In this document: one piece after another, positions 2,775-17,062 of the stretch
How the letters are laid out: each line of letters begins with the position of its first letter
How positions within the stretch are numbered: the first letter of the stretch is position 1
IMG/VR virus record: IMGVR_UViG_3300024264_000006
Coordinates: 1 to 64,000 of that record
Strand: one strand, 5' to 3'
Length of the DNA: 64,000 bases
From: a virus
Translations under genes and position numbers: made by a program
Notes under the pieces: generated by a model
What the model saw: the letters and a program-made list of their open reading frames with translations, nothing else
What the model was told of the DNA's origin: nothing
Databases searched by the model: none

Positions 2775-5700
2775 TCAAGCTGTTCTTACATATAATGTAT
2801 ATGTTTGTATTGTACTCGACCCACTTTGGATTGTTAATCCAATGTAGTTACCTACAAAATCCCTTTGATAGTTACCTATGAAATCACGTGTGTAATTTCC
2901 AGTAAATCCAGTGGAATAGTTTCCTATGTAATCTCCAGCGAAGTCACGAGTACTTGTTCGTGTACTGGTACTTGTGTAAGCCGAAGTTCTAGTCCTACTG
3001 AATGCAGAAGTTCTAGTACGTGTCGATACTCTAGTAGAAGTTCTTGCATACTCACCTAAGAAATCACGTGAGTAGTTACCGACAAAATTTCCAGCAAAGT
3101 CTGTCACTCTATCTCTTGAGTAGTTGCCTATGAAATCACGTGAGTAATTACCTACGAAATTTCCAGCAAAGTTTGTTACTCTGTCTCTTATATATTCACC
3201 TAAGAAGTCACGAGTATAGTTGCCTATGAAGTTACCCAAGTAATCTCCAACAAACGTTCTACTATAGTTGCCTACAAAGTCACGTGCGTAGTTACCAACA
3301 AAGTCCCCTGTGAATGTTTGGAGACTATTTCTTGTGTACTCACCCACAAACGTTCTACTATAGTTACCCACAAAGTCACGAGTACTTGTTCTTGTAGAAG
3401 TTCTTGCGTATGTGGAAACTCTACCACGAGTGTATGTAGAAACACGGGTTCTTGAGTAAGCTGATACACGAGTTCTTGTAGAAGTCCTTGCGTATTCACC
3501 TAAGAAGTTACCAGCATAGTCGCCTGCAAAGTTACGTGCATAATCACCCACATAGTTACCAGCAAAGTCTCTGTTGTAGTTACCAGTGTAGTTACCAACA
3601 AAATCTCCAGCAAAGTTACGTGCGTAGTTTCCGACAAAGTTACCAGCAAAGTCTGTTACTCTATCACGAGTGTAGGCCGAACTTCTAGTACGTGTTGAGG
3701 TTCTTGCGTAGGCAGAAACTCTGTTACGAGTCGAAGTTCTAGTAGAAGTACGAGTAAAGTTACCAGTGTAATTTGTTATTCTAGTTCTTGCGTAGGCAGA
3801 AACTCTGTTACGAGTCGAAGTTCTAGTAGAAGTACGAGTAAAGTCACCAGTGTAATCTGTTATACGAGTACGTGAATAGTTACCTACAAAGTCTCCAGCG
3901 TAGTACAAAGTACGAGTATAGTTACCAGTGTAGTACAAAGTACGAGTATAGTTACCCGTAAAGTTACCAGCATAATATAAAGTTCTTGTGTAGTTACCAG
4001 CGTAGGACAAAGTACGAGTATAGTTACCCGCAAAGTTACCCGTAAAGTTACCCGTAAAGTTACCAGCGTAAGTAACGTTTCTAGAGTAGTTTACCGTTCT
4101 AGAGTAAAATCTGAAATATGGTTCTGGTTCATACCCAGTTCCACCCATGAACCATCTACTATAGATCACGCTTCTTGAATAGTTAACCGCTGCAACTCTA
4201 GAACGTGTTGATGTACGAGTCGAGGTACGAGTCGAGGTACGAGTGTATGTTCCCGTTGCGGTTCTAGTACGAGTGTATGTTCCGGTGCCGGTACTTGTAC
4301 GTGTTGAATCACGAGTGTATGTTCCCGTTGCGGTTCTAGTACGAGTGTATGTTCCGGTGCCGGTACTTGTACGTGTAGAAGTCCTTGTGTAGTTACCCAC
4401 AAAGTCTCCGGTAAAGACTGTCGCATAGTTACCAAGATAGTTACCCGCAAAGTCACCAACGAAGGTTCTGCTATAGTTACCAACGAAGTCTCCGGTAAAG
4501 ACCGTGGTATAGTTACCAAGATAGTTACCCGCAAAGTCACCAACGAAGGTTCTGCTATAGTTACCAACAAAATCCCCCGCAAAGTTTCTACTGTAGTTTC
4601 CTACAAAGTTACCCGCAAAGTTGGTTATCCTGTCACGGGTGAATGTGGAAGTTCTAGTACGTGTAGAAGTTCTAGTATAAGCTGCTGAATATGCACTTGT
4701 ACGAGTTCTAGTAGAAGTACGAGTATATGTAGATGTACGAGTTCTAGTAGAAGTACGGGTTGATGTACGTGCATAATCACCCACATAGTTACCAGCAAAG
4801 TTTCTACTGTAGTTTCCTAAAAAGTTTCTTGAATAGTTACCAGTAAATGTCCTTGCATAGTCACCTACGAAATCACCCGCATAGTTTGATACACGAGTTC
4901 TGTTATAGGTAGAGACCCTGTTACGAGAGTAATTCCCTACAAAGTCACCAACGTAATCTGTGATTCTAGTTCTTGCGTAGGTAGAAGTTCTAGTTCTAGC
5001 ATAAGCGGAAACCCTGTTACGTGTGAAGTTCGTTTCTCTATCACGAGTGTAGGCTGACACTCTTGTTCTGGTATAGTTTCCGACAAAGTTACCAGCAAAG
5101 TCTGTTACTCTATCACGAGTGTAGGCCGAAACTCTAGTTCTACTATAGTTCCCTATAAAGTTACCAGCAAAGTTGGTTACCCTGTCACGGTTATAAGTTG
5201 ATACCCTTGTCCTACTATAGTTACCAACATAATCCCCAGCGTAATTACCAGCAAAGTCTCTGTTGTAATTTCCTATGAAATCTCTGGTGTAATCACCAAC
5301 GTAATCTCCAGCATAGGTTGAGGTTCTGGTACGTGTTGAGGTTCTGGCGAATGTTGATCCACGTGATCTAGTATAACTTGAATTTCTTGATCTTGAATAT
5401 GCGGATGTACGTGTTCTTGCGTAAGCTTGATCCGCAGTATCTTTCTTCGTGTCCGTTGCAGTACCCACAGTTGCCCATGTTCCGGAGTCTGTGGGAGCTC
5501 CTTGTGAAGAGGAACGTAATTGGTAAGAACCGACTTCACCAGCGGTTGTTCTCAATGTTCTTACAAATGACCCAACAGTGTTCACGATGTCTGTATCAGA
5601 CATTTCTTGAATATCACCATCACTACGTAGACCAATTGGTCTCACCGTAGTTGGTGCTGTCATGGCATTTCTTTGATAGATGTTATATGGTACAGTAGTT

Positions 5701-6209
5701 CCGTCCGTCTGAGTGTCACTGAAGACCCCAGAAATATGAGTTGTATAATCTGCGCCGGGAGAAGAAGCCCCTAATTTGTATAAGCCAGGATATTCGGATG
5801 TTGCAATACGAGAATTAATTCTACGTGCAAGAATCGTCATGTCAGAGTCAGGCATCTCATAAAGACTTGGTACTGAACTTCCATCTTCCGCATATCCAAC
5901 GGGACGAAGACCTGATCCCTCGCTCGCTGTACCAGCTTTCTGATAAACTGTAGTTGTAGTACTTCCAGAGGTGATTGCAGATGCGGGGTGTGTTCCAACA
6001 GCTTGGTTGTTAAACGTGTCTACAAAAGAACCGATACTCGTACCACCTGTTGAGGTAAGAGTTATATCGGATACTAGATTTGTTCCACCAGCACTGGCAG
6101 CCAAGGCGTCTTTACCGACCACATAGGCAAGGTAGTTTTCATCAGTAGAATTCATCTCCTGAAGATCGCCGTTGGTTCCTTGTAATTTTAGTGGTACATT
6201 CGAAGACAT
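2775..6209 (-). CDS. self-complementary tetrapeptide-repeat fibre protein (1144 aa)
   Basis: about 262-aa base domain with three 'P..x..EM.DxD'-like repeats, then YxRx / FxG[ND] / STRT / RxSx tetrads; C-terminus paralogous to 6244..8700. Confidence 0.8.
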   Translation of the reverse strand: MSSNVPLKLQGTNGDLQEMNSTDENYLAYVVGKDALAASAGGTNLVSDITLTSTGGTSIGSFVDTFNNQAVGTHPASAITSGSTTTTVYQKAGTASEGSGLRPVGYAEDGSSVPSLYEMPDSDMTILARRINSRIATSEYPGLYKLGASSPGADYTTHISGVFSDTQTDGTTVPYNIYQRNAMTAPTTVRPIGLRSDGDIQEMSDTDIVNTVGSFVRTLRTTAGEVGSYQLRSSSQGAPTDSGTWATVGTATDTKKDTADQAYARTRTSAYSRSRNSSYTRSRGSTFARTSTRTRTSTYAGDYVGDYTRDFIGNYNRDFAGNYAGDYVGNYSRTRVSTYNRDRVTNFAGNFIGNYSRTRVSAYTRDRVTDFAGNFVGNYTRTRVSAYTRDRETNFTRNRVSAYARTRTSTYARTRITDYVGDFVGNYSRNRVSTYNRTRVSNYAGDFVGDYARTFTGNYSRNFLGNYSRNFAGNYVGDYARTSTRTSTRTRTSTYTRTSTRTRTSAYSAAYTRTSTRTRTSTFTRDRITNFAGNFVGNYSRNFAGDFVGNYSRTFVGDFAGNYLGNYTTVFTGDFVGNYSRTFVGDFAGNYLGNYATVFTGDFVGNYTRTSTRTSTGTGTYTRTRTATGTYTRDSTRTSTGTGTYTRTRTATGTYTRTSTRTSTRTSTRSRVAAVNYSRSVIYSRWFMGGTGYEPEPYFRFYSRTVNYSRNVTYAGNFTGNFTGNFAGNYTRTLSYAGNYTRTLYYAGNFTGNYTRTLYYTGNYTRTLYYAGDFVGNYSRTRITDYTGDFTRTSTRTSTRNRVSAYARTRITNYTGNFTRTSTRTSTRNRVSAYARTSTRTRSSAYTRDRVTDFAGNFVGNYARNFAGDFVGNYTGNYNRDFAGNYVGDYARNFAGDYAGNFLGEYARTSTRTRVSAYSRTRVSTYTRGRVSTYARTSTRTSTRDFVGNYSRTFVGEYTRNSLQTFTGDFVGNYARDFVGNYSRTFVGDYLGNFIGNYTRDFLGEYIRDRVTNFAGNFVGNYSRDFIGNYSRDRVTDFAGNFVGNYSRDFLGEYARTSTRVSTRTRTSAFSRTRTSAYTSTSTRTSTRDFAGDYIGNYSTGFTGNYTRDFIGNYQRDFVGNYIGLTIQSGSSTIQTYTLYVRTA
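2838..5423 (-). repeat. 12-bp-period (tetrapeptide) coding repeat array with 84-bp and 72-bp tandem duplications
   Basis: 84-bp period at 3701/3785 and 4402/4486; 72-bp period at 4241/4313. Confidence 0.9.
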
Positions 6210-6243: not shown

Positions 6244-8700
6244 TTATGCATATCGAACATACAAGGTATAAGTTTCTATTACAGATGATCCTGAACCGAT
6301 AGTTGTTCCTGTGTAATTACCCACAAAGTCACGTGAGTAGTTACCTACAAAGTCTCTAGAATAATCCCCAATGAAGTCACCAGCGTAGTTCGATGTACGA
6401 GTTCGGGTAGAATCTCTCGTATAAGCTGAAACTCTTCCTCTTGTATATGCAGATACTCTATTTCTTGAGAAGGTATCTGTTGAATCTCTTGTGTAATCTC
6501 CTATAAAGTCTCTAGAGAAAGAATTTCCGAAATTTCTGCTGGAAGTTCTGGTGGAAGTTCTCTCGTAACTAGAAACTCTTGTACGTTCATAGTTACGAGA
6601 ATATTCTCCAAAAAAGTCTCTTGAATAGTTACCTTCAAAACTTCTAGTGTAATCACGTGCACTTGTACGTGTATAGTTAGAAGCTCTTGTCCTACTATAG
6701 TCACGAGAATATTCACCTAAGAAGTTACCAGCAAAGTCACGAGCACTTGTTCTTGTTGAGGTTCTCGTTGAGGTACGTTCATAGTTGCCTATAAAGTCTC
6801 TAGAATAATCCCCAATGAAGTCACCAGCAAAGTTACGTGCATAATCAGTAATACGAGTACGTGTTGAGGTACGTGCATAATCGCCAGTGAAGTCACCAGT
6901 GAATTCACCAGCAAACCCCACGATACGTTGCCGTGTATATTCCCCAGTATAGGTTCTGTCACCAAGATAGTTTATGTTTCTGTAGTACGTTATGGTTTCG
7001 TATCCGGTGCCGTCTGGGTCTCTGGAGAAACCGTGCGCCCTAGAAAAAGGAATATCGGTCGAAACCCTGTTTCTAATATAATTTCCAAGAAAACTCGGAC
7101 TGTTACTATACTCTCCAGTATAATAGACTGTACGAGTAAAATCTCTAAAGAAAAAGTCTATGGGTATACCATCACCGTCTACTTCAGGTGAACCAAAGGT
7201 GCCCACCGATATAATTGTTGCAGCTCTGTTTCTAGTAAAGGTTGCGGCAATCGATTCTCTAGTCGATTCTCTAGTCGAGTTTCGAGTATATTCACCTAAG
7301 AAGTTACCAGCGTAGTTACCAGCGTAATTACTACTTCTTGTACGTGTTGAGGTTCGTTGATAGTGACGAGTTGAGGTACGAGAATATTCACCTAAGAAGT
7401 TACCAGCGAAGTTACCAGCGTAATTACTACTTCTTGTACGTGTTGAGGTTCTCGTAAAATCTCTGGAATAGTCACCAATGAAGTCTCTAGTATAGTCACC
7501 TGTGAAATTACGTGAAAAACTCCTTGAGTACACTCCTTCATAAGCTCTAGCATAACCGCCTTCGAAATTACGACTGTAGTTTCCTAAGAAATTACGTGTG
7601 TAATCACCTATAAAGTTTCCAGTGTAACTACTACTTCTTGTACGACCATAAGCTGATACTCTAGTTCTGTTATAGTTACCTATAAAGTTTCCAGTGTAAT
7701 TGCCAGCGAATGTACGTTCATAGTTGCCAGTGAATGTACGTTCATAGTTGCCTATGTAATCTCCAGCGAAGTCACGAGTACTTGTTCTTGTTGAGGTTCT
7801 CTGATAGTTACGAGTCGAGGTACGTAGGTAAGCTGACGTTCTAGTCCTAGCGTATGAAGTTTGTACCAAATTCTTTTTAGTGTTTGTTGCAGTACCCACT
7901 GCTCTCCAAGAACCTGTAGCTGGTTGACCTTGAGAACTTGATCGCAATTGATAAGAACCAATCGCATTAGAAGGAGCTCTTCTTGTTTTTGCACGTTGAC
8001 CCAAAGACACTTTCATCTGTCTTGTAGTCATCGGAGTCAAACCTTGGAATGTTCCGGTCTTACCACCACTTCTTTTCACCGACATTAGTTTGGTGACTGC
8101 ACCATCACTATCCAATATACTTGTAGGAGAGGATTGCGTTTCTCTACGATATATGTTATAATCTACCTGAGTTCCATCGGTCTGTGTATCCGAAAAAATA
8201 CCTGAAGAAAATACAGCATAATCTCCGCCTGGCGAAGATGAACCCAACTTAAATTGTCCTAGATAATCAGATAATGCAATTCGAGCATTTAAACGATCCG
8301 CAAATATGTTCATATCCGAATCGGACATTTCATGAACACCTTCTAAAAGGCTTGACGGGCCATCGGTAGGTGGGTTATAATAGGCTATTGGTTTTCTAAA
8401 ATCCGAATCTGCTTCTGACGCCGTACCTAGAATCTGATAAAGGTTTGTAGTAGTAGATGATGAAGATATAGATGAGGCCGGATGAGTACCTACTGATTCA
8501 TTAAAGTAGGTATCAATAAAGGAACCTGTTAAAGTATTGCCACTAGAAGTTAAAGTTAAATTGCCGACATCATTATTTGTCTCAATAAGGTGTTGTCCCA
8601 CCAAATAAGATAGATAATTTTCTTCTGTACTACTTAACCTCTTTAAATCACCCTGATCAGGACTTTGGAGTTTAAGCGGTTTACTCTTCGCAATTGGCAT
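6244..8700 (-). CDS. self-complementary tetrapeptide-repeat fibre protein, paralogue (818 aa)
   Basis: shares N-domain motifs ('ENYL.Y.VG','VGTHPAS','GSYQLRSSSQG') and C-terminus 'GSS.I.TYTLYVR.A' with 2775..6209. Confidence 0.8.
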   Translation of the reverse strand: MPIAKSKPLKLQSPDQGDLKRLSSTEENYLSYLVGQHLIETNNDVGNLTLTSSGNTLTGSFIDTYFNESVGTHPASSISSSSTTTNLYQILGTASEADSDFRKPIAYYNPPTDGPSSLLEGVHEMSDSDMNIFADRLNARIALSDYLGQFKLGSSSPGGDYAVFSSGIFSDTQTDGTQVDYNIYRRETQSSPTSILDSDGAVTKLMSVKRSGGKTGTFQGLTPMTTRQMKVSLGQRAKTRRAPSNAIGSYQLRSSSQGQPATGSWRAVGTATNTKKNLVQTSYARTRTSAYLRTSTRNYQRTSTRTSTRDFAGDYIGNYERTFTGNYERTFAGNYTGNFIGNYNRTRVSAYGRTRSSSYTGNFIGDYTRNFLGNYSRNFEGGYARAYEGVYSRSFSRNFTGDYTRDFIGDYSRDFTRTSTRTRSSNYAGNFAGNFLGEYSRTSTRHYQRTSTRTRSSNYAGNYAGNFLGEYTRNSTRESTRESIAATFTRNRAATIISVGTFGSPEVDGDGIPIDFFFRDFTRTVYYTGEYSNSPSFLGNYIRNRVSTDIPFSRAHGFSRDPDGTGYETITYYRNINYLGDRTYTGEYTRQRIVGFAGEFTGDFTGDYARTSTRTRITDYARNFAGDFIGDYSRDFIGNYERTSTRTSTRTSARDFAGNFLGEYSRDYSRTRASNYTRTSARDYTRSFEGNYSRDFFGEYSRNYERTRVSSYERTSTRTSSRNFGNSFSRDFIGDYTRDSTDTFSRNRVSAYTRGRVSAYTRDSTRTRTSNYAGDFIGDYSRDFVGNYSRDFVGNYTGTTIGSGSSVIETYTLYVRYA

Positions 8701-11099: not shown

Positions 11100-11330
11100 T
11101 TATAATTTCTCTACTATTTGCGAAAGTAACCCTTTAATATCTGACATCTCTTTCTTAAGAGTATCTACTTCTTTTTCTAGAGATTCTTTCCTTTTCTGTT
11201 CTTCTTTCCAGAGACGTTTTCGTTCACGTGCTGCCTGAATCTCATCTTTATTTATATTGATAACAGGCCCATACTCTCCCGCACGTGCGAAATCATTTGA
11301 GCCTTCTAATGCTATATACTTCTTCTCCAT
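11100..11330 (-). CDS. small coiled-coil hypothetical protein
   Basis: 76-aa ORF abutting both neighbours; heptad C-terminus. Confidence 0.65.
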   Translation of the reverse strand: MEKKYIALEGSNDFARAGEYGPVININKDEIQAARERKRLWKEEQKRKESLEKEVDTLKKEMSDIKGLLSQIVEKL

Positions 11331-14300
11331 TAGATCGCCAATGCAATTGCTCTAAGGTCACGAATAATCGGAACCTTAGCACTGTTAGTTGACTCCATGA
11401 CGATCTTCAACTTAAATTTACGGAAGTCTGCAAGATCAGCACCATTCAAGTTGTTGATATCACCAAATCCACCAATAGTATATCGATATTCACGGAACTT
11501 ACTTGGGTTCGTGTCGGAAGGTAATACATTGTCCGAAGTTGCTAACACCCAAGCTTTAGCTTTAAGTCTATCTTCAGCTTCACCAGTCTTGTAGTAAACT
11601 TTAAAGTCGGCTTCGGGTGGTTTGTTTGCAGCAAGTATTACCTTGATGCCTTTTGCAGTCTCTTCCAATACCACTTCTTGTGTTATGTGTTTTGCCAAAC
11701 TAGAACCCGCAATTGTAGTTTCGGGGAAGTAAGTCAATGGCACATTGTATCCATCTGTAGATGCAGAATCCTGTTTATCGATCATGTTACCAATCATTGC
11801 CATACCGGCAGCCTGCATATCAATAACAGGAGATACTTTACTATCAGTTGTTGTCATAGACATCTGAATGATTGCAGATTTAGGATGACTGTAAGTCGCC
11901 AGTTCCGTTGACTCTTCATTCGGATTAATAATACATTTTGGGCCATTAAAGTAATTGTTCTTTTTATTCTGAATCAATGTGAACACATTGTCTTGTATGA
12001 ATCTACCAGATGAACTATCTACCAACGAAGAGTTCGAAGTGAACTTCGCTGACATGGTGATATTCGTAGTAGGCACTTTCATGGTCTGAACCGTAGGCCA
12101 AACCAAATCGAATGTTGGGTTCATACTACCACTACACTTACCACCACCGAATCTTCCTGCTTTGTCAAAGGCAGAATCCGCAAGGAATTGATACGCTGTA
12201 CCATCTACGGAAGTAACCTGTCGATTACCCGTGATACTTGATCCAAGAACACCGTTGTATCTTGTGGCAGCACCAAGACCAGCAATAGTTGTGATATCAC
12301 CTTGACGTAAACCATGACCTCTATTAATAACAGTTACAGTCTTAGCTTTGTTACCACCAGCATCAATGTAATCTTGAGGTACTGCAAATGGATTCTTGGT
12401 CAATACCGTAGGATCAACATTTACATTTTCCAGTAAAGCATTACCAGAAGTATTAAAGTCACATCTGAATAATTGATATGCCAAATCTTCTGTCTGAGAA
12501 GGTTCCCATAACAGAGAGTTTTGAGATTTAAACAATGACCCCAAAGTTGGTTGTTCAGCGATACGTTTCTCTGTAGAACCAAGTACAAAGTCTTCAACAC
12601 GAGAAATGTACGTTCTGTACTTCATAGACTGTGACTGTAGAACAATAGCATACTCGTGTGAATGGGCCAAGTAGATTGGTTCATCAAACTCAAAGTCTGT
12701 ACCATTGGCCAACATCTCTTCGATTGTAGGATCACTGTATGTATCCTCAATGGCAGTTACTTGCGCTTGTTGAACAATCGTTACTCCGCCTGGAACAATA
12801 CCTGTTGAATGAGGTACACCATTTACCGTAGGTCTAATCTGACACATTACAGGAAGACCTGTATCATCCTTACTCGCAAAGAACACACGTACTTTTTTAA
12901 CGAATACACCATTCGGATCATCTAAACCAACTTGGAAAGTTTGTGCAAGTGGGTCAGAATATACACCAATCGTAGTAGTGATTGTCTGAGAATCAACAAC
13001 CTCAGAGTTTGTTTCTGTTCCAACAACAGTTTCAGTTGAGGTAGTTTCCGTCTGAACGTCTGTAGCAGTTTCTTCAGTGACGGCCACATCTGTACTTGTT
13101 GTAAATGTACTTCTAGTATCTGTATCCTCTCTTGTCGATGCACTACCACTAACTTCTAAGATACGTGTACTGTGTACAATATCTTGCACAGGTTCAATGA
13201 AACCCGTTGAAGTGAATTGTGTAGTAGCAAATGACAAGGCCTCATCTTTATTCGGAACACTGATATCACACAGTAAAAACTCTCTTTGACCTGTCGGGAA
13301 ACGCATTGCTGAGTTGTTTGGTATTTCAAACTCACCCAGAATATTTCCGCTTGTATCAGAAATAAGATTTGCGTTTGCAGGCGTCTGTTCACTGTGTGTT
13401 ACAGCTGGTGTGAGACCAGCCGTTCTTGTCTCTGGGTCTCTATCCGAATGTCTTTTAAACACTCCTGTAGAAATACAGTAAGCACTAACATCAGTATTAG
13501 AAAAGAATGGGAAGTATCTTGTAGATGGACGAAGACCATCAGCTTTGAATGATACTTTTCTAGAACGCATCCAAGGGATGGAAATCAAATCGAATACACG
13601 TTGACCCACAATTTCACGCACAGTGTGTTCACCCGAAATTCTATTAACCGTTGTGGTTGTAGAAGTATTCGTTGTGATCTGTGTTTCTGTTTGGAACTCA
13701 GTCTCGGTTGTAGTAGTTGTAGTTTGAGCTAAAGTTGTAGTATCAATAGTCTCAGTAGTTTCACGTGTTTCTGTGGTTGTGGTCTGAATTGTATCTATTG
13801 TACCCACAGTAATAGTAGCACCACCACGGCGGCCTCCACGCATACCACCCGTCATTGGATTCTCATCTGCCCAAACGTCAGCAATAAGACCAAGTTGATC
13901 AGGGTCGGTAATTGTTACGCCACCAAAGGTACTCGTGAATTCTTCATGAGTTTCTTGAGAGACGATATCTGTCTGTGTACCCAAAGATGTTGTATCTGAG
14001 GTTGTACCTGTTACAGTCCAATCTGTTTGGTCTACGGTTGTAGTTTGTCCAGTGATCGAAGGTTCAAGAGTGTTACTTGTTTGAGATGTAGATGTACCAG
14101 TTACTTGACCTTGTGAAGCACCAACTTCTAAGTCATCAAGAGATACACCACCCCAATCCCACTCATGGTTGTTCCAGTTGACAGCATTAGATGTGTCAAG
14201 AACTGTTGGTTGGTCGATAATTTCTGGGGCTCTAACATCGGTCTCTTTCCAGTAATCGGAAGCAGGAGACATAGTAACATAACCCACAATCTTTTCAATG

Positions 14301-17062
14301 AAGAATGGGTTTAGGTTTTCTGTTCTAGAAGCAGTATTCTGTTGTTGATAAGGAACCACTGTATAGTCTAGGGTAATTAAATCCCCCGACTTTTTAACAT
14401 TCAGTTGACCCGCATTTGCAGAATCAAATCTAAGGTCGATTGCTGTTTCTTTCTTGCCCGGTCTTAATATTTTCTTCTGGGGATCAATCGTCGCACGATA
14501 TTCAACGCTTCTAATATCTGAGAAAGCATGGTTTGCAAAGTTGTCCACAAAGAAACCGGACTTAGTTCTATCTGCACCCGCAGAGTCCAAAGCTTTCAGT
14601 GATTGTGTTTTTAGTTCCAACATAGACAGAGTGGCCATTTCTTCCACTTTGTCAAGTTTGGTTTCGATCTTGTTGATGTCCGCCATCGTATATCCTTTCA
14701 AAGGAAGGAGACGAGCTTTCATATCTTTTGTATGAAGAGTAAACGGATTCAATTCATATTTGTACAGATCAATACAGTCTGTAGGTGTGTCGGGAAATGT
14801 AGGTGTAATTGATGCAGTACCTTGTAAGTATCTCAACTCACCCAAATTTGACAACACAAGTTTGTCTTTACGAGGCAGATAGAATTCTGCATCCATCTCA
14901 ACCGTGTCTGTAGGTTGAGGGAGTTCGTTTACAACAGTAAAGGAACCCGAACCGTTAGTAGCGGGACGGAAGTCCAACACGTCACGGAGAGATACCAAAC
15001 GTCCATTCTCCATTTTGTGTGCTGGGACATCTACGTAGTCAACCTGTCCTGTATAGGAATTGATTGCAAAGAAGTCGCCTGTACCATGTGAGAAGTACTT
15101 GAATCTAGCGAAGATCGTTGTACCATTACCACCAGCGGAGTCTGTGCTTGGTTGGCCAACACCTTTCCAGATAAGTTTACCATCATCATAGTGAGTATCA
15201 CGATGGCCTGTATCCAGTTTAAAATCTGTGAATATGTTATTTCCATCGGAGTCGTTGATTCGGACTCTGTTCAGAGAGAAAATGTCTGACTTACCAAGAG
15301 CAAGATACTTAACACCGTCACCATCTGAATCTAGTCTACCACTAACTGTGGCTTCTGTCAAGGTTTTAGGTCTAATTTTTGCAAGACCTTTTTTGACATA
15401 TGCGAGAATTTCTACCGCAGTACTGGCGGGTAGACCGGAAAGAGTGGCAGAAGTTGCGCCACCTGTTAAACTTGTTGTCACTGAACCTAAGAAACCATCG
15501 GCTGCAGATGCAAAAATCCAATCGCCTGTATTCTCAAAGGTTTCACCTGAAGTTGTTAGTGTGATAGTAAGTTCACCACCAGATGTCGCAGTCCCACTAA
15601 ACCTTCGTTGCGAGGACAATGAAACACTACTAAAATTCTTAGGTCTAGGAATAGGAGAATCAAATAATAGAGTTTTCTTCTTAGTCTCACGCAGTGTTGT
15701 ATTATTACTAAAATCGATGTTATAGTAATTCGATGTACTTGTACCTACGGAACGTACATTTCTCAAACTGTATGAGTTATTAGTAATCGTCACATCGAAC
15801 ACATGAAGTCGATATTGATTGTTCTGGAATTCTGAGATAGCACGAACCCTACATGTACCAATAGAGTTTTGTCCACCAGCAGTTCTGTACAGTTGTACTT
15901 CTTCACAATCATCAAAATTCAACATTCCCTTAGCGCCCAATGTATCGGATACTAGGAAATAGTTTCCGTAGTCGGCAAGAATACCTTGATTGTCAATTGT
16001 GGTTGTTTCTTGTGCACGCTTTACAACAATAGGTGTTGTTGAGGTTTTTTCGATTCGGAAACCGTCGATGTAAGCAAGGCCAGGATCAACTTCCAATTTA
16101 AAAGTCGTATCGTTATTAGGTAAGAATCTTGTCTTGAAATATTTTTTAATGAAGTTACCATGAATCTCACGGATACGTGTTGCTACGTGGTTACCGATTT
16201 CATTATATCCTTCAGAAGATAGTACCTTGTTGACTTCTTTTCCATCCACAATCTTAGAGTATGGGACATGGTTCTCATCCGAGTCTAGGTCTTCCAACTT
16301 AGATAGTGTTAGACGAATTCTGTATCTGTCTGCGCCAGGCGATGATCTGTTAGGTGTCGCCCCTTGGTTATCAAAGAGAGCATCGTCATCGGAAGAAGTA
16401 ACAATATCTTCTGTTACTTTGAAAACAATCTCACCACTATAGTTCTGATTGTACTTGGAGAGATAGATTGTTTGTGCCGGTGAGAATACAAATCGACCAA
16501 CAGCAAAGAATGAACCTTCACCAGTCTGATATGAAAGTCCTTGTCCTGTGGCAGGGTTAGATGAACTGTTTTCTTGTTGTACATCAAATGTATACGTACT
16601 GCCGTTAATAGTACCCGACAAGGTTTCATTCGCAGTTACACGAAGGGCTGTTTCTCCAGCCTGCGCTTGAGGTGTTTCTAGATAAGTGACGTAAAGTGTT
16701 TCGGGGTCAGTTGCAGTCGCAGCAAGTTTATCATCAACACGGATTTTAATTCCACTAGTCTGACCAACAAAAACATTATCAATAATATCTACGTTTGATG
16801 GTAGTGGGGTACTTACTTTAATTTTAATAAATTCAAGTTTCTTATTGAAAGATGAAGCAGAGTTATTTACGGGCGCACCGTCTTTGAAGACGTTCTGTCC
16901 TAGACGTGTGATCTCTTTCTGAACAATCGTTTGGAGTTGAGTTAACTCACGGGCCTGTAGAGCACGTCCACTGTTAAACAGGATGCGATGATATCCATCA
17001 CTGTCAGCGTGATCGTCCTTGTATGTAGTATTAAATACTTGTTTATTAAAAATCTTTGTCAT
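11330..17062 (-). CDS. large virion structural protein (DUF4815/VrlC-like)
   Basis: 'YKDD...YHRILFNSGRALQARELTQLQT', 'PGADRYRI', 'KSGFFVDNF', 'DPLAQTF', 'GSLFKSQN', 'P.IRDLRAIAL'. Confidence 0.85.
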   Translation of the reverse strand: MTKIFNKQVFNTTYKDDHADSDGYHRILFNSGRALQARELTQLQTIVQKEITRLGQNVFKDGAPVNNSASSFNKKLEFIKIKVSTPLPSNVDIIDNVFVGQTSGIKIRVDDKLAATATDPETLYVTYLETPQAQAGETALRVTANETLSGTINGSTYTFDVQQENSSSNPATGQGLSYQTGEGSFFAVGRFVFSPAQTIYLSKYNQNYSGEIVFKVTEDIVTSSDDDALFDNQGATPNRSSPGADRYRIRLTLSKLEDLDSDENHVPYSKIVDGKEVNKVLSSEGYNEIGNHVATRIREIHGNFIKKYFKTRFLPNNDTTFKLEVDPGLAYIDGFRIEKTSTTPIVVKRAQETTTIDNQGILADYGNYFLVSDTLGAKGMLNFDDCEEVQLYRTAGGQNSIGTCRVRAISEFQNNQYRLHVFDVTITNNSYSLRNVRSVGTSTSNYYNIDFSNNTTLRETKKKTLLFDSPIPRPKNFSSVSLSSQRRFSGTATSGGELTITLTTSGETFENTGDWIFASAADGFLGSVTTSLTGGATSATLSGLPASTAVEILAYVKKGLAKIRPKTLTEATVSGRLDSDGDGVKYLALGKSDIFSLNRVRINDSDGNNIFTDFKLDTGHRDTHYDDGKLIWKGVGQPSTDSAGGNGTTIFARFKYFSHGTGDFFAINSYTGQVDYVDVPAHKMENGRLVSLRDVLDFRPATNGSGSFTVVNELPQPTDTVEMDAEFYLPRKDKLVLSNLGELRYLQGTASITPTFPDTPTDCIDLYKYELNPFTLHTKDMKARLLPLKGYTMADINKIETKLDKVEEMATLSMLELKTQSLKALDSAGADRTKSGFFVDNFANHAFSDIRSVEYRATIDPQKKILRPGKKETAIDLRFDSANAGQLNVKKSGDLITLDYTVVPYQQQNTASRTENLNPFFIEKIVGYVTMSPASDYWKETDVRAPEIIDQPTVLDTSNAVNWNNHEWDWGGVSLDDLEVGASQGQVTGTSTSQTSNTLEPSITGQTTTVDQTDWTVTGTTSDTTSLGTQTDIVSQETHEEFTSTFGGVTITDPDQLGLIADVWADENPMTGGMRGGRRGGATITVGTIDTIQTTTTETRETTETIDTTTLAQTTTTTTETEFQTETQITTNTSTTTTVNRISGEHTVREIVGQRVFDLISIPWMRSRKVSFKADGLRPSTRYFPFFSNTDVSAYCISTGVFKRHSDRDPETRTAGLTPAVTHSEQTPANANLISDTSGNILGEFEIPNNSAMRFPTGQREFLLCDISVPNKDEALSFATTQFTSTGFIEPVQDIVHSTRILEVSGSASTREDTDTRSTFTTSTDVAVTEETATDVQTETTSTETVVGTETNSEVVDSQTITTTIGVYSDPLAQTFQVGLDDPNGVFVKKVRVFFASKDDTGLPVMCQIRPTVNGVPHSTGIVPGGVTIVQQAQVTAIEDTYSDPTIEEMLANGTDFEFDEPIYLAHSHEYAIVLQSQSMKYRTYISRVEDFVLGSTEKRIAEQPTLGSLFKSQNSLLWEPSQTEDLAYQLFRCDFNTSGNALLENVNVDPTVLTKNPFAVPQDYIDAGGNKAKTVTVINRGHGLRQGDITTIAGLGAATRYNGVLGSSITGNRQVTSVDGTAYQFLADSAFDKAGRFGGGKCSGSMNPTFDLVWPTVQTMKVPTTNITMSAKFTSNSSLVDSSSGRFIQDNVFTLIQNKKNNYFNGPKCIINPNEESTELATYSHPKSAIIQMSMTTTDSKVSPVIDMQAAGMAMIGNMIDKQDSASTDGYNVPLTYFPETTIAGSSLAKHITQEVVLEETAKGIKVILAANKPPEADFKVYYKTGEAEDRLKAKAWVLATSDNVLPSDTNPSKFREYRYTIGGFGDINNLNGADLADFRKFKLKIVMESTNSAKVPIIRDLRAIALAI

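Follow-up and report, generated by a model that had tools for sequence, protein, structure and literature searches.

The closest described system to the one considered here is the needle of T4 gp37, a six-stranded antiparallel structure in which three chains run out and back (Bartual et al. 2010, via PMC9659904). Our subject is gene A (P0001), an open reading frame of 818 amino acids (aa) on the minus strand, at positions 6244-8700 of the first 64,000 nucleotides of the virus record IMGVR_UViG_3300024264_000006 (hereafter the window), which stays free of stop codons throughout. It lies among the tail-fibre genes of a T4-like marine phage that has not been cultured and whose 147.6-kb IMG/VR contig is by estimate about 87% complete and carries exactly two genes of this kind, A and its neighbouring paralogue B (P0002). 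We propose, and consider quite probable, that gene A encodes a structural fibre of this T4-like phage with a chain folded back on itself.

With the gp37 needle such a protein would share its place in a T4-type fibre, a chain that goes out to a distal tip and returns, and a receptor-binding part at the far end. There is, however, no sequence similarity between gp37 and A, and A has no Pfam or PHROG tail-fibre match. The fold-back of gp37 takes in its last couple of hundred residues and has His-bound iron, whereas HxH motifs are absent from the repeats of both A and B, and in B no His occurs among 863 repeat residues. The arms of A and B, with their 200-430 residues, are several times longer than those of gp37, in which the three-class code of tetrads described below is also absent.

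Two other kinds of system deserve comparison. RNA stem-loops offer an analogy, not a homology: they too have two antiparallel complementary arms of equal length, a register set by aperiodic order, and compensated changes. Gene A encodes a protein, in which the complementarity is of side-chain types and the rule is looser, since one class of unit (G, below) also accepts Y or G partners. Pentapeptide-repeat proteins and related beta-solenoids, such as MfpA (PDB 2bm4), resemble A in having short repeats rich in aromatic residues, Gly, Asn and Asp, but the period of A is 4, not 5, the order of its units is aperiodic and there is no Pfam match. Solenoids also explain parallel contacts from i to i+n, and not the constant-sum antiparallel code of A.

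Neither A nor B was assigned to any family in Pfam (E<=0.1 for A) and PHROG scans. A sequence search of the PDB with A returned two rows at chance level only (E 0.36 and 0.78), neither of them gp37, and the same search with a short relative (P0030, 453 aa) returned only chance-level rows; Foldseek gave no match at E<=0.001 against BFVD and PDB. No description of the family turned up in literature searches that covered tetrapeptide repeats, the fibres of cyanophages, ribbons of two strands, phage C48C1 and virion proteomes. It therefore appears to be undescribed in the sources searched, with no structure, no Pfam or PHROG family and no paper to its name.

Complementary arms and a single register

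The product of gene A can be divided into five parts, all read from the minus strand. An N-terminal base domain (aa 1-282, positions 7855-8700) is homologous to that of paralogue B and is followed by an outgoing arm of 50 tetrads (aa 283-482, 7255-7854). Then comes a tip region (aa 483-599, 6904-7254), which is non-repeat, in which the tetrad classes dissolve, and which is the most variable part of A. A returning arm, again of 50 tetrads (aa 600-799, 6304-6903), leads to a conserved C-terminal tail (aa 800-818 with the stop codon, 6244-6303), where a motif of the ETYTLYV type is invariant throughout the family. The 518 repeat residues contain no Lys, no Cys and no Met, only 2 His, and as many as 76 Arg and 93 Tyr or Phe.

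We assigned the tetrads to three classes, Y ([YF]xRx), G ([FYL]xGx) and S (STRx or Rx[ST]x), reading the outgoing arm in frame from Y283 and the returning arm from residue 588, and scored every antiparallel register with S:G and Y:Y counted as matches. A single peak was obtained, at a sum of unit starts of 1079, where 38 of 52 pairs match under these strict classes and the next-best register gives 19; the tally at the peak is 23 S:G, 16 Y:Y, and no S:S or G:G pairs. At the level of residues this register corresponds to i+j = 1081, with tetrad position 1 opposite position 3, exactly where a sequence-only reading of this DNA had placed 50 consecutive, gap-free pairs of tetrads from Y283, within positions 6307-7854 (aa 283-798 of the gene). 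The pairs which that reading cited as examples (RTSA:FVGN, YLRT:YSRD, STRN:FVGN, FAGD:RTSN and YIGN:STRT) were all found. When the degenerate S units SARD, SSRN and STDT are admitted, 42 of the 50 pairs between aa 283-482 and aa 600-799 are complementary, and the next-best register reaches 21. There are 27 Arg/Ser-type units that oppose [FY]xG units, and the number of S:S pairs is zero.

An origin of the peak in composition alone was rejected by two shuffle controls. With the tetrads of the C-terminal arm permuted, the best score over all registers was 19.4 +/- 1.7 matches (maximum 29) versus 38 observed, and with the register fixed at its true value and the non-Y tetrads alone permuted, z was 4.6; under the relaxed classes the shuffles reached 21.2 +/- 1.8 against the 42 of 50 observed. 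Pairing of the arms in parallel was rejected as well, its best register fitting only 24 of 44 units.

On the face made by positions 1 and 3 the residue pairs of A are Y-R, F-R, F-S, G-S and G-R, with few Y-G, and R-R, aromatic-aromatic, S-S and G-G pairs do not occur on it. The order of classes has no fixed period: Y units are spaced 1 to 6 units apart and same-class autocorrelation does not exceed 0.48. The gene contains no DNA inverted repeat, hence its mirror order is not that of a nucleotide palindrome.

As claimed in the sequence-only reading, the rule that sets S units against G units has one exception in A, RSSS:FGNS, but about seven Y:G pairs had been passed over there. Four Y:G pairs follow one another at aa 379-395 versus 684-700 (positions 7513-7563 and 6598-6651), namely FEGG:YSRN, YARA:FFGE, YEGV:YSRD and YSRS:FEGN. 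The run is kept in one of two orthologues from other IMG/VR contigs (L003), and canonical S:G and Y:Y pairs stand in its place in the other (L004); this run may mark a local hinge or a patch where the register shifts.

Recurrence and covariation among relatives

A phmmer search with the N domain of A against 1.84 billion representative sequences recovered 331 representative clusters at E<=1e-3, 131 of which reach E<=1e-30. Among the relatives retrieved, 153 are full-length with the conserved tail, ending in Y.LYV, and 87 of these abound in S and G units. At lengths between 436 and 1290 aa, 54 of the 87 have their best register at the protein length plus 225 to 275, as if it were counted from the base. 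For A it is length plus 261, and exactly the same offset is found in both orthologues (L003, 815 aa, register 1076; L004, 773 aa, register 1034); a base-anchored register, near length plus 260, was also counted in paralogue B and in phage C48C1. Gene A thus has all the features by which we define the family: a homologous N domain of about 280 aa, an invariant tail predicted to dock on it, and an antiparallel complementarity of arms that is anchored at the base.

The pairing preferences hold across the family. Over 31 relatives the observed to expected ratios are 2.6 for S:G, 1.9 for Y:Y, 0.42 for G:Y, 0.32 for G:G, 0.07 for S:Y and 0.02 for S:S. The fourteen-fold depletion of S:Y is an independent check, since this pair had no part in choosing the register. 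When six relatives were compared unit by unit from the base, 59 double class changes kept complementarity and 6 lost it, pair counts that are not phylogenetically independent. What is strict in the code is the demand of an Arg/Ser unit for an aromatic/Gly unit opposite, and the G units are more permissive.

Direct evidence for this permissiveness comes from the orthologue in L003, where at aa 447-458 the units Y,S,S have become G,G,G (YVGD YVGI YVGN) and now form G:Y and G:G pairs, so that a G unit is tolerated opposite G or Y. Several relatives (P0030, P0045, P0049 and P0057) use what may be called repeat dialects, with arms made almost entirely of YTGx or FTGx units and G:G pairs throughout, with units of the QYxG type, or, in one variant, with an S-rich outgoing arm facing a returning arm of G units only. 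Judged by these dialects, the S:G and Y:Y code of A and B is a special form of a more relaxed rule that sets aromatic residues against Arg or small residues.

Comparison of A with L003 points to the same face of the tetrad. There are no indels in either arm, the sole one (3 aa) being in the tip. Positions 1 and 3 are conserved at 84% and 88% in the outgoing arm and at 92% and 94% in the returning arm, versus 60% for position 2 in the former and about 50-60% over both arms. Identity is 94% in the N domain and 63% in the tip, which is rich in indels when compared with L004. In the tail, T810, Y811, L813, Y814 and A818 are invariant in the family alignment.

One could suppose that the repeats are a disordered, sticky, low-complexity region rich in Arg, Tyr, Gly and Ser with no fixed partner, and that their mirror complementarity arose by chance or through the turnover of repeats. 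The extreme composition described above would suit such a region, and so would the failure of both structure predictors (below) to give it a confident fold. Shuffle z-scores above 10 at one single register, the same anchoring in dozens of relatives of different length, compensated class changes, and positions 1 and 3 far more conserved than position 2 speak against it, and there is no palindrome in the DNA to generate a mirror order; we regard this explanation as very improbable.

A proposed fold-back of the chain

The full-length AlphaFold2 (AF2) model of A, made with 16 relatives, assigns a predicted local distance difference test (pLDDT) score of about 90 to the N domain (aa 1-284) and of 87-96 to aa 795-818, and places the strands 265-290 and 789-816 next to each other. 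If the two ends of the chain meet as predicted, the 510 residues between them are forced to run outward and back again, which, taken with the complementarity of the arms, speaks most for a fold-back stalk. The fold-back topology itself we hold to be likely, with considerable confidence; that the stalk is a beta structure of a virion fibre, two-stranded or intertwined, we hold to be probable.

We suggest the following course. The chain would leave the globular base domain at about Y283, run outward for 50 four-residue units, form the variable tip of about 115 residues, and come back through 50 further units, every one facing its outgoing counterpart, after which the invariant last 20 or so residues would attach to the base domain as a strand. 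Positions 1 and 3 of the tetrads would make the pairing face, with an aromatic residue opposite Arg or Ser and Gly opposite Arg or Ser. An STRx or RxSx unit would have to oppose an [FY]xG[ND] unit, and [YF]xRx units would mostly oppose one another. As the order of units is aperiodic, only one register would satisfy this rule, so that stalk length and register alike would be determined by the sequence. Beta strands presenting positions 1 and 3 on one face agree with the period of 4 and with the composition. The tip would be receptor-binding and the fibre attached to the baseplate or tail; these assignments, as well as the oligomeric state, belong to the part of the model that we infer. The complementarity with its one register, the recurrence and covariation in the family, and the docking of the chain ends as predicted by AF2 make up the part that is shown. 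With the geometry of a beta-ribbon the stalk of A (200 residues per arm) would reach at most about 66 nm and that of B (about 430 residues) about 140 nm. The sequence-only reading had given 65-70 nm and 140 nm, and its arithmetic is right for fully extended beta arms, which makes these values upper bounds under an assumed beta-ribbon geometry.

A broader formulation, to which we give somewhat better than even chances, is that the family represents a protein counterpart of base pairing. A three-letter alphabet of tetrapeptides, written aperiodically in the two arms of a single chain, would programme the unique register and the length of a stalk only nanometres thin and from tens to more than a hundred nanometres long, and would evolve by compensated swaps and matched expansions of the arms, and paralogues of the same virion would differ about twofold in length and share a base-proximal 'address'. 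If the chain does fold back, nature has in this protein set a long-range register by means of a simple, readable pairing code, open to checking by covariation as is done for RNA helices. It would also mean a new fibre architecture for host recognition, with a length tuned by matched gain and loss of repeats and with a fast-evolving tip, and it would offer a design principle for programmable beta-ribbon nanomaterials. The family also marks a blind spot of structure predictors, hundreds of its members being without a confident model.

Several points weigh against the fold-back fibre. The arms of A are unmodelled: for aa 285-794 the pLDDT of AF2 is 25-35, and A stands in the ESM Atlas with a pLDDT of 0.32 and with unnamed viral proteins as its nearest clusters. 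The place of A in the virion is putative, and its sole relative in phage records is an unannotated protein of C48C1. The code is not absolute, as the Y:G pairs of A demonstrate; the three N-arm units that changed to G in L003 did so with their partners unchanged, the arms of some relatives consist of G units nearly throughout, and the non-independence of the pair counts has been mentioned. Finally, in the AF2 model of P0030 (13 sequences) each arm forms a beta-solenoid of its own, at pLDDT 40-50.

This last model is the basis for another explanation, in which each arm is a separate beta-solenoid like the pentapeptide-repeat helix and two such rods lie side by side. The arms of the P0030 model are solenoids of short strands whose best match is MfpA (Z 9.6, root-mean-square deviation (rmsd) 1.7 A over 78 residues, from a low-confidence model), and other pentapeptide-repeat proteins match them too. 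A coil could touch the neighbouring rod with one of its sides only, but in A the complementarity extends to 42 of 50 consecutive units. We rank the solenoids low, as improbable, because they cannot explain complementarity at every consecutive unit, and the class order is aperiodic; it lacks a fixed period, and no Pfam repeat family is matched.

More weight, though still that of an unlikely alternative, should be given to a partner in another chain: in a trimer or other oligomer, under the same rule and register, the outgoing arm would pair with the returning arm of a neighbouring subunit, forming a six-stranded intertwined stalk like the gp37 needle in place of three separate hairpins. Fibres of the T4 type are trimeric and the needle itself is built of three chains that go out and back (PMC9659904). 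Complementarity of sequences is blind to whether the partner is within the chain or between chains, and the upstream neighbour of A, P0003, has trimer-like repeats of the gp5 type. A simple hairpin is what the short turn of B, about 10-16 residues between its last paired units, fits best. AF2 docks the C-terminal tail on the N domain of the same chain, although a run on a monomer could give nothing else.

For the base domain of the fold-back fibre a likeness to the beta-prisms of MABP and of the C-terminal region of MACPF proteins (PDB 3tow, 2qp2, 8b6v and 6sb1) was noted. The modelled base domain with the C-terminal strand aligns to them with VIA-align Z 5.4-6.8 and rmsd 3.6-3.8 A over 112-118 residues, and a second model with Z 5.1-6.5 (about 112-122 residues over both models), values that lie within the range common for unrelated folds, at 6-13% identity and with no Foldseek match. 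The likeness may serve as a lead only, weak but reproducible.

The paralogue B and its relation to A

Paralogue B, a fold-back protein of 1144 aa, is encoded next to A at positions 2775-6209 on the minus strand, and the two genes stand side by side in three related viral contigs. Its register peaks at 1385, with 54-57 S:G, 29 Y:Y and 6 same-class pairs. The sequence-only reading had described A as a second paralogue that follows the same code at about half the length and stands on a homologous base domain. Both statements agree with our results: A has 50 paired tetrads versus about 95-107 in B, and the base domains are 46% identical (E 1e-76).

The same reading held that the order of classes differs between the two proteins, that the code was hence replicated independently, and that different barcodes could prevent cross-pairing. 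The first part stands for the distal halves only, where we count 11 of 26 cross-matches versus 21 of 26 self-matches. The first 23 or so units of A follow the class order of B with an offset of two units (36 of 50 direct matches overall), which leaves the proximal part colinear. Over these 23 proximal units the outgoing arm of A matches the returning arm of B at 19, and the outgoing arm of B matches the returning arm of A at 20. A scan of the arms of one paralogue against the other, which had been expected to give no long match, yields 31 of 50 and 30 of 50 versus 22.5 +/- 1.5 in shuffles. The barcodes of A and B are thus not orthogonal near the base, their proximal units being cross-complementary, and the proposed protection from cross-pairing fails for that half of the arms. 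More plausibly, the aperiodic order fixes one register within each hairpin. What A adds is a code reused in a half-length paralogue beside B, together with a shared proximal order that limits the idea of a barcode against cross-pairing.

Most of the six same-class pairs in B are FAGN:FAGN, and every one forms the middle of a local mirror motif, RVTx-FAGN-FxGN opposite FxGN-FAGN-RVTx, that recurs several times. An identical A is present in contig KY04-V-P of Joint Genome Institute (JGI) sample 3300072015, where the downstream paralogue is listed with 1117 aa, not 1144; this is either a length variant or a truncation at the contig end, and the 27 aa by which the two differ do not divide evenly into unit pairs.

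Gene neighbourhood and phage C48C1

All neighbours considered here are encoded on the minus strand, like A. Directly upstream lies P0003 (8715-11099), a repeat protein of 794 aa with a match to phrog_9992 'baseplate assembly protein' (1.7e-8) and a weak one to Gp5_trimer_C below the Pfam cut-off; it is probably a beta-helical fibre or baseplate protein, and its position is conserved in relatives. Next comes a protein of 1910 aa (11330-17062) of DUF4815 and phrog_358, and beyond it are gp8-like and gp9/10-like baseplate genes; a gp6-like wedge gene is also found upstream of A.

Downstream, four genes conserved in synteny occupy positions 388-2701. They encode proteins of 156, 244 and 235 aa and an LtfC-like fibre-assembly protein of 119 aa (PF23926 at 1e-4, phrog_3304 at 1e-16). 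The four always stand behind the hairpin genes in L003-L005 and in C48C1, where they share 43-67% identity with ours. The first three (812-2701) are better conserved in C48C1 (43-67%) than the base domain of the fibre (45%). They have no Pfam or PHROG match at E<=0.01, and an earlier suggestion that they are glycosyltransferases or oxygenases found no backing in profile searches; they may act on the fibres as chaperones or as enzymes that modify them.

Gene A thus lies between baseplate genes and an LtfC-like gene of fibre assembly, a setting that counts in favour of a fibre. Three IMG/VR contigs keep the gene order of the whole fibre block, as does phage C48C1, which is labelled Kyanoviridae. 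A tblastn search with A and with its N domain against 50,697 phage records gave C48C1 as the sole match. In place of the A and B pair this phage has a single homologue of 3347 aa (OQ984149.1, 141011-151054; L001:11995-22038). Its sequence contains long 12-residue periods of the YSG type, several separate blocks of the GGY type and islands without repeats, and its strongest register, 2664, covers only a part of the protein, which suggests a branched or multi-hairpin stalk.

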